Part shown: piece by piece, positions 37,483-46,899 of the stretch
How the letters are laid out: each line of letters starts with the position of its first letter
How positions within the stretch are numbered: the first letter of the stretch is position 1
From: Escherichia coli
GTDB lineage: Bacteria > Pseudomonadota > Gammaproteobacteria > Enterobacterales > Enterobacteriaceae
NCBI RefSeq assembly: GCF_003334305.1
Contig: NZ_QOWS01000006.1
Direction: 5' to 3' (one strand)
DNA length: 64,000 nucleotides
Made by a program: the position numbers and the translations under genes
Notes under the pieces: generated by a model
What the model saw: the letters and a program-made list of their open reading frames with translations, nothing else
The model's database searches: none
What the model was told of the DNA's origin: nothing

Positions 37483-38441
37483 TCGCTAATCCATGCCTGA
37501 CGTTGTGCCGCCACTTCAGCTGGTGTGAACTCCAGCGTGGTGGCCGGTTTGGTCAATTGTTCAAACCCGGCAGGCAGCGTGACATTTGCCACCGGATACA
37601 TCCAGTTACCGGTTGGGATCGCATTCTGAAAAGCCGGAGAAACCATAAACTGGAGGAATTTTTGCGCCAGCTCCGGCTGCTTGCTGGCAGCGGTGCGGGC
37701 GGCGACTTCCACCTGCAGATAGTGACCTTCGCTAAAGTTCGCGGCGGCGTAGTTATCTTTTTTCTCTTCGAGAATGTGATAAGCCGGAGAGGTGGTGTAA
37801 CTCAGTACCAGATCGCTTTCACCTTTTAAAAACAGGCCGTAGGCTTCGCTCCAGCCTTTGGTGACCGTGACGGTTTTCTTCGCCAGTTTTTGCCAGGCTT
37901 GTGGGGCGTCATCGCCATAGACTTTTTGCATCCACAACAGCAGGCCCAGCCCCGGCGTACTGGTGCGCGGATCCTGATAAATCACCCGCCAGTTTTGATC
38001 GCTCTCAACCAATTCTTTCAGGCTTTGCGGCGGGTTTTTCAGTTTGTTCTTGTCATAGACGAAGGCGAAATAGCCGTAATCAAACGGGACGAAAGTGTCA
38101 TTATTCCAGCCGCCGGGAACGTTAACGGCATCCGCTGCCACACCGCTTTTGGCAAATAGTCCGGTTTTACTGGCGGCGTCTAACAGATTGTTATCCAGCC
38201 CCAGCACCACATCGGCTTTACTATTTTTGCCTTCCATCCGTAGACGGTTGAGAAGCGAAACGCCATCTTCCAGCGCCACCAGTTTCAGTTCGCAGTTACA
38301 GTCGGCTTCAAAAGCTTTTTTGATCTTTGGACCAGGCCCCCAGTCGGCGGCGAAGGAATCGTAGGTATAAACAGTCAGAACGGGTTTAGCGAAAACGGGC
38401 GCTGTGCACAGCAACAGCAGGGGAAGACATTTTTTTAACAC
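37458..38441 (-). CDS. thiB: thiamine/TPP periplasmic binding protein
   Basis: Track ORF starts at 38453 (MRCKVLKKCLP); the known N-terminus MLKKCLPLLLLCTAPVFA corresponds to a GTG start at 38441; signal peptide present. Confidence 0.88.
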   Translation of the reverse strand: MLKKCLPLLLLCTAPVFAKPVLTVYTYDSFAADWGPGPKIKKAFEADCNCELKLVALEDGVSLLNRLRMEGKNSKADVVLGLDNNLLDAASKTGLFAKSGVAADAVNVPGGWNNDTFVPFDYGYFAFVYDKNKLKNPPQSLKELVESDQNWRVIYQDPRTSTPGLGLLLWMQKVYGDDAPQAWQKLAKKTVTVTKGWSEAYGLFLKGESDLVLSYTTSPAYHILEEKKDNYAAANFSEGHYLQVEVAARTAASKQPELAQKFLQFMVSPAFQNAIPTGNWMYPVANVTLPAGFEQLTKPATTLEFTPAEVAAQRQAWISEWQRAVSR

Positions 38442-38479
38442 TTTGCACCTCAAAAAAGAGTGGCAAAGGACTTGAGAAG

Positions 38480-38565
38480 GAGCCTCAAATCCCTTCGCCG
38501 GCGTTATCCGGATCAGGTTCGACGGGTATTTTCTCAGCGCACGCGTTTGCGTGGCACCCCGTTGA
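38480..38565 (-). ncRNA. TPP (thi-box) riboswitch in the thiBPQ 5' leader
   Basis: Minus-strand GGGGTGCCACGCAAACGCGTGCGCTGAGAAAATACCCGTCGAACCTGATCCGGATAACGCCGGCGAAGGGATTTG carries the conserved CUGAGA and ACCUGAUCNGGAUAAUGCC-like thi-box. Confidence 0.85.
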
Positions 38566-38604
38566 GAACGGCGTTAGTGTAGTGATTTTGTTATCTACCA
38601 GCAA

Positions 38605-40260
38605 TCATGGATCCGGCGGCGCAAACCACGCTGATTTAAAATCGAACCAGCCGAGGGTATTCATACGCAGGCCGCGCATACTGCGTTGTCCCTGAATGAT
38701 CAGCCAGTGGTGGATAAGCGGCACCATTGCTTTACTGGCGACCAGTTGCTGGCACCAGTTCGCCAGGTTCATTTCGCCATTGCGCCAGCGGGCGGCGTCG
38801 GCTTGCCAGTCGATCGGAATACAGTGTTGGAGCAGCGGCACCTCGCACAAGTGCGCGAACAGCGAAAAATCCAGCGGCAGCGTAAAGTTGGCGCTATTAA
38901 GCCAGATATCGCTCTCGATCTCTCCTTCATGCCACTGATCGTAGTCGATCTCTTTGATTTCCAGCGTGACCTGGTGGCTTGCCAGAATCTGCTGCATGAT
39001 CCCGGCAATCACCCGATGCTCACTGTGATCCTGATAAAAGGTCAGGGTGAGGCTTTCCAGACCAGCCGGTTTTTCGCTCTTTATGGTGCGGGCATGGTGC
39101 CAACGGGGGAGCAGTCCATAAGCCGGGAACCACAGTTGCTGGTACTGTTCCTCAGCGAAATAGACCAGATTAGTTGGAGAAAGCACATAGCTTACCCAGT
39201 CCCTGACTTGCTGATTCGCACCGCGATGGGTGCGGCTGTCGAATAGTAAATAGTAGCAACCTTCCTCCAGGCGGCTTTCAATCTCTTTTTCCTCGCCCTG
39301 TGGACCTTTTAGCATCAGACCTCCAGCTGGCTCGTCGGCAATTTCCGGCAGAACCCAGACGTTAACTTCATCGATTAATGCCCGGTAACCGAAGAAGTCA
39401 TCGAATGCCTGAATTTTCAGTTGATTGGTGGTGTTGCGGATCACCGCATACGGACCGGTGCCGATGGGATGGCTGGCAAAGTTACTGAGGGTTTCCCATT
39501 CGCGCGGCAGGATCATCGCCGGAACTTGCCCCAGCAGTAACGGTAACCAGCGGTCCGGTTGCGTGAGATGGATATCCAGCGTCCAGGGCGTCGGCGACAC
39601 AATGTCCGCAATATGCGAATAGAGCGGCAGCGTATTGATTCGTTTTAAAGAGGCGATCACGTCGTCCATTTCCAGTTCACGACCATGATGAAAATGGACT
39701 CCTGGACGCAAAAAGAAACGCCAGTGAAGCGGTGATATTTGCTGCCAGTGGTGGGCGATGTCTGCTTCCAGTTCCCCATTTTCCTCATTTATGCGCGTTA
39801 GCGAACTGAAGATTTGCCGGGCAATATGGGTTTCGGAACGGCGCAATGCGCTGCCAGGTAGCAGATTACGCAACGGACGATAGTAGAGCACGCGCAGGAT
39901 GTGCCGCCCCTGGCGGAAGCTGCGGCCCAGATGAGAAACCAGCATTTGCCGCACAGTCGCTTTGTCGCCAACCAACTGCACTAGTTGGTCGATACGATCC
40001 TGCTCCAGCAGGTCTTCCGCCCGCTGTTGCTGAAGCGCCAGCCCGGTATAGAGGAATGTCAGACGCGAGCGTTTACCACGCCCGACTTCCGCTTCCCACG
40101 TCAGCCAGCCGCGATCCTGCATGGTGTTGAGCAGGGTGCGCATATGACGACGCGAGCAGCTCAATAACGCTGCCAGTTCGTTGAGCGTTGTGTCCTGCGA
40201 TTTACCCTCGCAGCATTGCCACAGGCGGATGAACTGTTGTTGCAGACGAGCAGATGGCAT
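38605..40260 (-). CDS. sgrR: transcriptional activator of sgrS (N-terminal HTH plus solute-binding-protein-like domain)
   Basis: Track ORF extends to 40281; the internal start [21 protein letters not shown] at 40260 gives 551 aa. Confidence 0.9.
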
Positions 40261-40327
40261 AAAAGGGGAACTCCTGTGCAAAAGACAGCAATTTTATTTT
40301 CCCTATATTAAGTCAATAATTCCTAAC

Positions 40328-40554
40328 GATGAAGCAAGGGGGTGCCCCATGCGTCAGTTTTATCAGCACTATTTTACCGCGACAGCGAAGTTGTGCTGGT
40401 TGCGTTGGTTAAGCGTCCCACAACGATTAACCATGCTTGAAGGACTGATGCAGTGGGATGACCGCAATTCTGAAAGTTGACTTGCCTGCATCATGTGTGA
40501 CTGAGTATTGGTGTAAAATCACCCGCCAGCAGATTATACCTGCTGGTTTTTTTT
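40328..40554 (+). ncRNA. sgrS: sugar-phosphate stress small RNA SgrS (Hfq-dependent, dual-function)
   Basis: Starts GATGAAGCAAGGGGGTGCCCC...; contains the base-pairing segment GAGTATTGGTGTAAAATCACCCG and ends in the terminator hairpin CCAGCAGATTATACCTGCTGG plus a U8 tract; divergent from sgrR. Confidence 0.9.
40349..40480 (+). CDS. sgrT: 43-aa peptide encoded within SgrS (glucose-uptake inhibitor)
   Basis: ATG at 40349 gives MRQFYQHYFTATAKLCWLRWLSVPQRLTMLEGLMQWDDRNSES; it is the 3' part of track ORF 40181-40480. Confidence 0.85.
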   Translation: MRQFYQHYFTATAKLCWLRWLSVPQRLTMLEGLMQWDDRNSES

Positions 40555-40581
40555 ATTCTCGCCGCGCTAAAAAGGGAACGT

Positions 40582-41760
40582 ATGATCTGGATAATGACGA
40601 TGGCTCGCCGTATGAACGGTGTTTACGCGGCATTTATGCTGGTCGCTTTTATGATGGGGGTGGCCGGGGCGCTACAGGCTCCTACATTGAGCTTATTTCT
40701 GAGTCGTGAGGTTGGCGCGCAACCTTTCTGGATCGGACTCTTTTATACGGTGAATGCTATTGCTGGGATCGGCGTAAGCCTCTGGTTGGCAAAACGTTCT
40801 GACAGTCAGGGCGATCGGCGAAAACTGATTATATTTTGCTGTTTGATGGCTATCGGCAATGCGCTATTGTTTGCATTTAATCGTCATTATCTGACGCTTA
40901 TCACCTGTGGTGTGCTTCTGGCATCTCTGGCCAATACGGCAATGCCACAGTTATTTGCTCTGGCGCGGGAATATGCGGATAACTCGGCGCGAGAAGTGGT
41001 GATGTTTAGCTCGGTGATGCGTGCGCAGCTTTCTCTGGCATGGGTTATCGGTCCACCGTTGGCCTTTATGCTGGCGTTGAATTACGGCTTTACGGTGATG
41101 TTTTCGATTGCCGCCGGGATATTCACACTCAGTCTGGTATTGATTGCATTTATGCTTCCGTCTGTGGCGCGGGTAGAACTGCCGTCGGAAAATGCTTTAT
41201 CAATGCAAGGTGGCTGGCAGGATAGTAACGTACGGATGTTATTTGTCGCCTCGACGTTAATGTGGACCTGCAACACCATGTACATTATTGATATGCCGTT
41301 GTGGATCAGTAGCGAGTTAGGATTGCCAGACAAACTGGCGGGTTTCCTGATGGGGACGGCAGCTGGACTGGAAATACCAGCAATGATTCTGGCTGGCTAC
41401 TATGTCAAACGTTATGGTAAGCGGCGAATGATGGTCATAGCAGTGGCGGCAGGAGTACTGTTTTACACCGGATTGATTTTCTTTCATAGCCGTATGGCGT
41501 TGATGACGCTGCAACTTTTTAACGCTGTATTTATCGGCATTGTTGCGGGTATTGGGATGCTATGGTTTCAGGATTTAATGCCTGGAAGAGCGGGGGCAGC
41601 TACCACCTTATTTACTAACAGTATTTCTACCGGGGTAATTCTGGCTGGCGTTATTCAGGGAGCAATTGCACAAAGTTGGGGGCACTTTGCTGTCTACTGG
41701 GTAATTGCGGTTATTTCTGTTGTCGCATTATTTTTAACCGCAAAGGTTAAAGACGTTTGA
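40582..41760 (+). CDS. setA: sugar efflux transporter (MFS)
   Basis: 392-aa 12-TM-like ORF MIWIMTMARRMNGVYAAFMLVAF... Confidence 0.9.
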   Translation: MIWIMTMARRMNGVYAAFMLVAFMMGVAGALQAPTLSLFLSREVGAQPFWIGLFYTVNAIAGIGVSLWLAKRSDSQGDRRKLIIFCCLMAIGNALLFAFNRHYLTLITCGVLLASLANTAMPQLFALAREYADNSAREVVMFSSVMRAQLSLAWVIGPPLAFMLALNYGFTVMFSIAAGIFTLSLVLIAFMLPSVARVELPSENALSMQGGWQDSNVRMLFVASTLMWTCNTMYIIDMPLWISSELGLPDKLAGFLMGTAAGLEIPAMILAGYYVKRYGKRRMMVIAVAAGVLFYTGLIFFHSRMALMTLQLFNAVFIGIVAGIGMLWFQDLMPGRAGAATTLFTNSISTGVILAGVIQGAIAQSWGHFAVYWVIAVISVVALFLTAKVKDV

Positions 41761-41781
41761 TGACGTGGACGATAGCGGAAA

Positions 41782-41801
41782 GCCCGGTCATTTGACCGGG
41801 C
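41782..41801. terminator. hairpin between the convergent setA and leuD (possible bidirectional terminator; no clear T-tract)
   Basis: GCCCGGTCatttGACCGGGC. Confidence 0.3.
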
Positions 41802-41808
41802 AAGGGGA

Positions 41809-43825
<2,017 letters not shown>

Positions 43826-46532: not shown

Positions 46533-46560
46533 TAAAAAAACCCGCGCAATGGCGCGGGTT
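46533..46560 (-). terminator. leu operon attenuator (intrinsic terminator between leuL and leuA)
   Basis: Minus-strand CCCGCGCCATTGCGCGGG followed by TTTTTTTA, 22 nt after the leuL stop. Confidence 0.85.
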
Positions 46561-46582
46561 TTTTGTTTGACTGCGTGCTGGC

Positions 46583-46669
46583 TTAATGCTGGATGCCGCT
46601 CACTCGTCTACCGCGCAAAGAAGATGCGTTTAGTAGTAGTAGACCGATAAAGCGAACGATGTGAGTCAT
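46583..46669 (-). CDS. leuL: leu operon leader peptide (28 aa, four tandem Leu codons)
   Basis: Hand translation of the complement of 46583-46669 gives [28 protein letters not shown]; the four Leu are all CUA; followed by the attenuator hairpin; it is the 3' part of track ORF 46583-46774. Confidence 0.85.
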
Positions 46670-46899
46670 TAAATCAGCTCCAGATGAATGCGATATGCTT
46701 TTAGAGTTACTGGATACAAAAACGGATGTCAACCCTGACGCAATAAAAACGTCCCGCCAGCGTGAGTTCTGCATCCGTAAAATTAGCTAATTGTGCTGCG
46801 GTGGTTAAAGTAAGCGATATTAATTTCTGCTTAACTACCGACGCTTTTCATCGGTTGACATATTTCAGCATAAATTTTTGCATCTAATCAACGAGGAAA

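Follow-up and report, generated by a model that had tools for sequence, protein, structure and literature searches.

Identification of the 227-nt RNA as SgrS

Positions 40328 to 40554 (plus strand) of the window, that is, the whole stretch of 64,000 nucleotides that was analyzed, correspond to sgrS of Escherichia coli in its K-12-type allele, a 227-nt Hfq-dependent small RNA encoded divergently from its activator gene, sgrR. We put the probability of this reading at about 98%. In a whole-window scan with Rfam 15, the SgrS covariance model (RF00534) covered 40328 to 40554 (plus strand) over positions 1 to 232 of its 232 positions, with a score of 228.8 bits against a gathering score of 37 (E = 2.7e-64). 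A preliminary description of this DNA had placed a 227-nt SgrS unit at these same coordinates and had proposed the covariance model as a check; the model matched at full length and with exactly these ends. The sequence, which runs from GATGAAGCAAGGGGGTGCCCCATG...GCCAGCAGATTATACCTGCTGGTTTTTTTT, had no mismatch over 227 nt (100% identity) to the annotated sgrS gene (b4577) of E. coli K-12 MG1655 at 77367 to 77593. The predicted fold of the full RNA was -79.2 kcal/mol, with a z score of -3.4 relative to dinucleotide shuffles. SgrS has been documented as a discrete 227-nt RNA (PMC4021124), and sgrS was matched in 5400 of the 5426 complete E. coli genomes. No evidence contradicting the identification as SgrS was found.

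The sgrS/sgrT locus is an ordinary, textbook element that is already known, and its identification here adds nothing new. SgrS/SgrT is a model for one transcript that doubles as riboregulator and mRNA, and its recovery with exact boundaries by a reading of the sequence alone serves as a calibration point. The elements of the RNA are as follows.

40328..40554, plus strand: sgrS, dual-function small RNA, 227 nt (full-length RF00534 match, identical to K-12 b4577)
40338..40348, plus strand: K-12-type inverted repeat GGGGGUGCCCC, SgrS nt 11-21, forming a hairpin over the sgrT Shine-Dalgarno sequence
40349..40480, plus strand: sgrT, 43 codons plus TGA (PF15894; annotated as WP_001248770.1 / b4662 at the same place)
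40494..40515, plus strand: mRNA base-pairing region, SgrS nt 167-188 (predicted duplex with K-12 ptsG)
40510..40523, plus strand: small hairpin GGUG-UAAAAU-CACC, just ahead of the terminator (RNAalifold consensus)
40525..40554, plus strand: intrinsic terminator, with an 8-bp stem and a 7-nt loop at 40525-40547 and T8 at 40547-40554 (terminator scan, Rfam structure line)

Compared with the K-12 system (RF00534, b4577; PF15894, b4662), all 227 nt, the neighboring genes, the peptide, and the hairpin over the Shine-Dalgarno sequence were the same in the window. Nothing differed from MG1655 inside the RNA, whereas the flanking genes sgrR and thiB differed by 3.3 to 3.5%.

Genomic context and promoter of sgrS

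The gene order in the window was the canonical K-12 order, namely, thiB, the sroA/TPP riboswitch, sgrR, the divergent sgrS/sgrT, setA, and leuDCBA. SgrS was thus found divergent from sgrR inside the thiB-leuD interval, with a gap of 67 bp between the two genes. The neighboring features are as follows.

38472-38571, minus strand: TPP riboswitch upstream of thiB, annotated as the small RNA sroA in K-12 (Rfam match)
38605..40260, minus strand: sgrR, the divergent activator of sgrS, 551 aa from the ATG at 40260 (NCBIfam NF010149)
40261..40327, plus strand: sgrR-sgrS intergenic region, 67 bp, with the sgrS promoter inside
40582..41760, plus strand: setA, sugar efflux transporter, starting 27 nt after the sgrS terminator (TIGR00899, 602 bits; annotated as setA)
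46534-46683, minus strand: leucine operon leader (Rfam match)

The sgrR open reading frame (ORF) matched the SgrR equivalog model NF010149 with 1128.9 bits against a cut-off of 476 (NCBIfam), and K-12 and other E. coli strains carry an annotated sgrR at this position; the mechanical ORF list extends its start to a TTG at 40281. The sgrR sequence of the window was 100% identical to that of E. coli strains such as H15, A7, and A28. An Rfam match to a naRNA4/REP-type element was also present in the window at 22661-22740 (minus strand).

An alignment of 96 loci (91 unique sequences) revealed two blocks of the intergenic region that were at least 90% conserved, CAGCAATTT at 40288-40296 and TCCCTATATTAAGTCAATAAT at 40301-40321, with GATGAA at the sgrS +1 position downstream of them. 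The sgrS -10 element is likely AATAAT at 40315-40320, 7 nt ahead of +1. No good -35 element for sgrS was found in the 67-bp intergenic region, which would fit an activator-dependent promoter. A promoter suggested by a consensus scan (AAGACA-16-TATATT at 40282-40309) was rejected because 18 nt lie between the end of its -10 and the annotated +1.

A comparison of window positions 37961-42961 with positions 75000-80000 of NC_000913.3 gave a mosaic pattern of divergence. Differences from MG1655 amounted to 3.5% in thiB, 3.3% in sgrR, and 2.0% in the TPP element. They were 0% from the sgrR-sgrS intergenic region through sgrS to the spacer before setA, 0.17% in setA itself, and about 0.5% in leuD and leuC. 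This mosaic divergence suggests that a recombination boundary may lie near the start of sgrR. In the same collection of 5426 complete genomes, the sgrS and sgrR queries each matched 5400 genomes and were each absent from 26; the equal counts suggest that the same 26 genomes may lack both genes. Three matches of the two queries were on replicons labeled as plasmids.

Base-pairing region and 3' module

The preliminary description had located the pairing segment near the 3' end of the RNA. A near-invariant 13-mer core, CUGAGUAUUGGUG, was found there at 40501-40513, 41 nt from the SgrS 3' end, and it matched exactly the consensus 5'-CUGAGUAuUGGUG-3'. According to PMC2760817, this 13-nt core hardly varies among homologues of SgrS; in the 100 loci collected here (see below), its presence is a given, because the scan pattern included it. 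SgrS nt 167-188 was predicted to form a duplex of -27.8 kcal/mol with ptsG positions -29 to -8, across the Shine-Dalgarno sequence, as computed on short windows with the ptsG 5' region of K-12 MG1655, since ptsG lies outside the window and the window strain is not MG1655 (its sgrR differs by 3.3%). Shuffled sequences gave a mean of -12.4 kcal/mol, and 0 of 1000 were as good.

The description's terminator hairpin with a U8 tail was likewise borne out, and the RNA ends with a Rho-independent terminator and a long poly(U) tail with the small hairpin ahead of it. Each of the 8 pairs of the terminator stem was formed in 71 or all 72 of the unique homologues, and exchanges between G-C and A-U and between C-G and U-A were compensatory. 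Similarly, the 4 pairs of the small hairpin formed in 68 to 72 of the 72 unique 3' ends according to RNAalifold. The small hairpin is described as part of the Hfq-binding module (Ishikawa et al. 2012, as cited in PMC4021124). Two loci, from Citrobacter youngae CCUG 30791 and Citrobacter sp. Res13 (L027 and L083), had kept the core and a 40-aa SgrT, and the usual GCCAGCAG...CUGCUGGC terminator was replaced in them by unrelated sequence with a weak hairpin before a T run. These may represent a distal-terminator form like the published Klebsiella case.

In the mechanism described in the literature, the accumulation of sugar phosphates would lead SgrR to turn on sgrS. Through its 3' region (nt 167-188), SgrS would then pair with ptsG at the ribosome-binding site, as well as with manXYZ, yigL, and further targets, resulting in a translation block and RNase E decay, while the yigL mRNA would instead be stabilized. 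The 5' region would be translated into the 43-residue SgrT, which would bind PtsG (EIICB-Glc) and stop glucose uptake, and the small hairpin, the terminator, and the U8 tail would together make up the Hfq-binding module. Sensing of glucose-phosphate stress by SgrR, repression of ptsG and manXYZ by SgrS with Hfq, and stabilization of yigL have been reported (PMC4021124, PMC3901232, PMC12612679), as has the binding of SgrT to EIICB-Glc (PtsG) with a block of transport (PMC3901232; also PMC4021124 and PMC12612679). As far as can be read from the DNA, every sequence element that this mechanism would require is present in the window. The identity and anatomy of the RNA, its complementarity to ptsG, its structural conservation, and the coding constraint on sgrT are observations on the window itself; induction by SgrR, Hfq dependence, and the action of SgrT on PtsG would carry over from the literature on the identical K-12 sequence.

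The sgrT frame is protein coding

As the preliminary description had stated, a 43-codon ORF starts at an ATG at 40349 and ends at a TGA at 40478-40480; its translation is MRQFYQHYFTATAKLCWLRWLSVPQRLTMLEGLMQWDDRNSES. The ORF is identical to K-12 b4662, annotated at 77388-77519, and the RefSeq product name at the window-identical match is "glucose uptake inhibitor SgrT." It is contained within SgrS on the 5' side of the pairing region and has an ATG and a Shine-Dalgarno sequence of its own (AAGGGGG, 6-12 nt ahead of the ATG and inside a hairpin); 14 nt separate its stop codon from the GTG at 40495, the first triplet of the scan motif described below (GTGNNN plus the core). The peptide matched Pfam family PF15894 over residues 3-37 of 43 (E = 3.5e-13, 49.5 bits). 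The NCBIfam scan returned no HMM matching SgrT. A word-indexed protein search with the 43-aa peptide, in which the word index limits sensitivity, returned almost only E. coli variants.

A comparison of the peptide across species, also proposed in the preliminary description, was made with peptides taken from DNA. One genome per species (GTDB r220) was scanned for the pairing core followed by a T run, with a pattern that was the reverse complement of GTGNNNCTGAGTANTGGTG-N20-50-TTTTTT. The scan needs GTGNNN plus the core and T6 within 20-50 nt, and the resulting sample is therefore pattern ascertained; homologues whose terminator is distal (Klebsiella) or whose core has diverged (Aeromonas, Photorhabdus, and probably Yersinia) are underrepresented in it. 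A credible SgrS 3' end was found in 100 of the 101 scanned loci. The remaining one, from a Photobacterium metagenome-assembled genome (L067), was discarded as a chance match without the hairpin, sgrR context, or SgrT. An SgrT-like ORF was located just upstream of the core in 85 of the 100 species-level loci, a split of 85:15 that is not an unbiased frequency, because the pattern under-samples some homologues. All of these 85 ORFs but one (L095, truncated where its locus ends) had a purine-rich Shine-Dalgarno sequence and an ATG.

Together with the window's own ORF, the 85 ORFs gave 77 distinct SgrT peptides, 37 to 70 residues long, in which the pattern F..YF.AT..WL..RL..L..LMQW is conserved. 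The median dN/dS of the sgrT frame was 0.21 (Nei-Gojobori, 84 unique sequences) and was below 1 in 99.8% of 2462 pairs, as opposed to medians of 1.14 and 1.52 in the two shifted frames. Diversity at the three codon positions was 0.28, 0.23, and 0.45. Judged from the low dN/dS, the contrast with the shifted frames, and the diversity by codon position, the sgrT frame is protein coding and under purifying selection where it is present.

A K-12-type hairpin over the sgrT Shine-Dalgarno sequence

In the window, the G at SgrS nt 13 (40340) creates the inverted repeat listed above. The local fold was -6.0 kcal/mol with G13 versus -0.4 kcal/mol with the common A13 variant. In published work, mutations at C19/C21 that weaken this hairpin raised the production and function of SgrT (Wadler and Vanderpool, PMC2760806), and the native K-12 allele made very little SgrT, which was rescued only once the hairpin was weakened (PMC2760806; PMC4021124). 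Since the G13 hairpin hides the Shine-Dalgarno sequence, native SgrT output from the window allele is expected to be low. With the GGGG/CCCC hairpin over the Shine-Dalgarno sequence, this allele would be expected to have a weak peptide arm, with base pairing dominant, and the term "dual-function" may be largely nominal in the window strain, given low native SgrT.

The exact 71-nt 5' segment of the window was found in 1417 of the 5426 complete E. coli genomes (26%). Another difference lies within the peptide. SgrT of the window has Gly at position 32 (G116, 40443), where nearly all homologues have Glu or Asp, and in the 77-peptide sample, Gly at this position occurred only in the window allele. 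G13 and G116 are two K-12-type derived bases; strain 0-4 differs from the window by G13A alone and strain C10 by G13A plus G116A.

Loss of sgrT and two 3' alleles of sgrS

The gene sgrT has been described as the most variable feature of SgrS and as missing in Yersinia and Photorhabdus (PMC2760817, Horler and Vanderpool 2009). Within E. coli, the start codon of sgrT is changed from ATG to ATT in O157:H7, with SgrS otherwise kept, and strain HS-02 has a frameshift in sgrT. The exact 71-nt 5' segment of the O157 type was present in 312 of the 5426 complete genomes (about 6%). The CDS with the ATT start (L002:2522-2524) is still annotated as sgrT by RefSeq (WP_001248768.1).

Among the 100 species-level SgrS loci, 15 had no SgrT-like ORF in any frame (L022, L026, L033, L034, L035, L050, L052, L069, L072, L078, L090, L097, L098, L100, and L105). 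The Rfam SgrS model matched all 15 with 45.6 to 74.2 bits, as RNAs of 91 to 215 nt, and the promoter blocks, the pairing core, and the terminator were kept; the TPP riboswitch was seen within the locus examined in 11 of them. The taxa include Hafnia paralvei, Pseudescherichia vulneris and relatives, Phytobacter massiliensis, Entomohabitans, Atlantibacter species, Yokenella, and some "Enterobacter." These losses go beyond the Yersinia and Photorhabdus cases of the 2009 survey. The preliminary description had held that loss of sgrT in relatives with intact SgrS would speak against the identification. Such loss is seen in O157:H7, HS-02, and 15 of the 100 loci, and the identification stands. Loss of sgrT with SgrS intact is thus not a valid ground for refutation, and the peptide arm is dispensable in some lineages, in line with Horler and Vanderpool (2009).

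The sgrS genes of E. coli fell into two classes, one with at least 90% identity to the window allele (3242 genomes) and one with 80-90% identity (2158 genomes), a ratio of about 60:40. In the O157:H7 / CFT073-type allele (about 88.6% identity), the promoter, the first ~170 nt, the invariant core, and the terminator stem were as in the window, and most differences fell between about sgrT codon 37 and the terminator loop. A comparison of window positions 40494-40581 with L002:2434-2760 and L003:2434-2751 showed divergence starting near sgrT codon 37 and extending past the terminator, with the pairing core spared. The C terminus of SgrT is WEGSHSDY in the O157:H7 / CFT073 type versus WDDRNSES in the window. 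The O157:H7 / CFT073 type also has A13 in place of G13, without the hairpin over the Shine-Dalgarno sequence, and lacks setA downstream; the ATT start of sgrT in O157:H7 (also in PMC2760817) comes in addition to these differences.

The gene setA was found in 3241 genomes, in identity bands one genome off those of the sgrS class with at least 90% identity, and the O157:H7 and HS-02 loci were without setA. From these matching counts, which were compared as totals, the sgrS 3' allele appears to be linked to the presence of setA. The allele boundary seems to lie inside the small RNA gene and to travel with the setA indel. Taken jointly, a view of the evolution of this locus can be offered tentatively, and we would sooner doubt it than rely on it: the peptide arm would be repeatedly dispensable, two 3' alleles at about 60:40 would travel with the presence or absence of setA, and their junction would lie inside sgrS at the end of sgrT. 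If this is true, sgrS is a case of a dual-function RNA divided by a recombination or indel boundary that leaves the pairing core intact. The repeated loss or damping of sgrT, with the pairing core invariant, gives a modest, testable view of which arm is dispensable.

Alternative readings of the locus

The mechanical ORF list contains a TTG-initiated ORF of 99 aa at 40181-40480, of which sgrT could be merely the C-terminal part of a conventional protein. The frame is indeed open from the TTG at 40181, and a few database entries carry an N-terminally extended SgrT of 52-55 aa. However, the annotated 5' end of sgrS lies 147 nt downstream of the start of this ORF, which shares its initial 80 nt with the coding sequence of sgrR on the complementary strand and also runs across the conserved promoter blocks. 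The frame upstream of the ATG was open for a median of only 7 codons in 85 homologous loci, versus 60 here, and the Pfam match is confined to residues 3-37 of the 43-aa peptide. We therefore regard the 99-aa ORF as an artefact, and its reading as a real protein is effectively refuted. The preliminary description had already dismissed this ORF as a product, on the view that it runs into the sgrR promoter; it does reach the promoter, and rather than being confined to it, it enters the sgrR coding sequence. The 227-nt unit as a whole could also be mainly a 5' leader of the setA mRNA, with the terminator acting as an attenuator that governs read-through into setA. This is very improbable. The start of setA 27 nt past the terminator on the same strand, the activation of setA by SgrR, which places it in the same regulon as sgrS (PMC4021124), and the presence of setA in step with the sgrS 3' allele would agree with a leader, but SgrS and its terminator are kept without a downstream setA in 2158 E. 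coli genomes and in many other species, the terminator with its U tail is a conserved Hfq-binding module, and the discrete RNA is documented, as cited above. Read-through into setA would be compatible with the identification as SgrS and would not replace it; cotranscription of sgrS and setA is presumed.

A further possibility accepts the RNA as SgrS and holds that, in the window strain, it is a riboregulator only, with sgrT intact yet effectively silent and the peptide contributing nothing natively. The stability of the G13 hairpin, the very low SgrT published for the native K-12 allele, the restriction of Gly32 to the window allele within the sample, and the repeated loss of sgrT elsewhere all point this way. 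Against it, the ORF is intact with its ATG and Shine-Dalgarno sequence, the allele is unchanged over the 71-nt 5' segment in 1417 genomes, and K-12 SgrT is active once expressed (Wadler and Vanderpool 2007 and Lloyd et al. 2017, as cited in PMC12612679); moreover, low expression of sgrT does not equal none. We consider a complete silence of the peptide arm unlikely, though of the three readings weighed here it is the one with the most in its favor.

Relation to other SgrS forms and dual-function RNAs

As the full-length, ORF-bearing form of SgrS, the RNA of the window can be compared with the short homologues without sgrT, which are also divergent from sgrR and have the same promoter blocks, core, and terminator, but which are only 91 to 215 nt long and lack an SgrT-like ORF. 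RNAIII/hld, SR1/SR1P, AzuCR, and VcdRP resemble SgrS in combining a pairing regulator and a small ORF on one transcript (PMC12612679), although neither their sequences nor their structures are related to those of SgrS. The ORF of SgrS occupies a different part of the molecule from the pairing region, and the two have a common pathway (PtsG) as their target.
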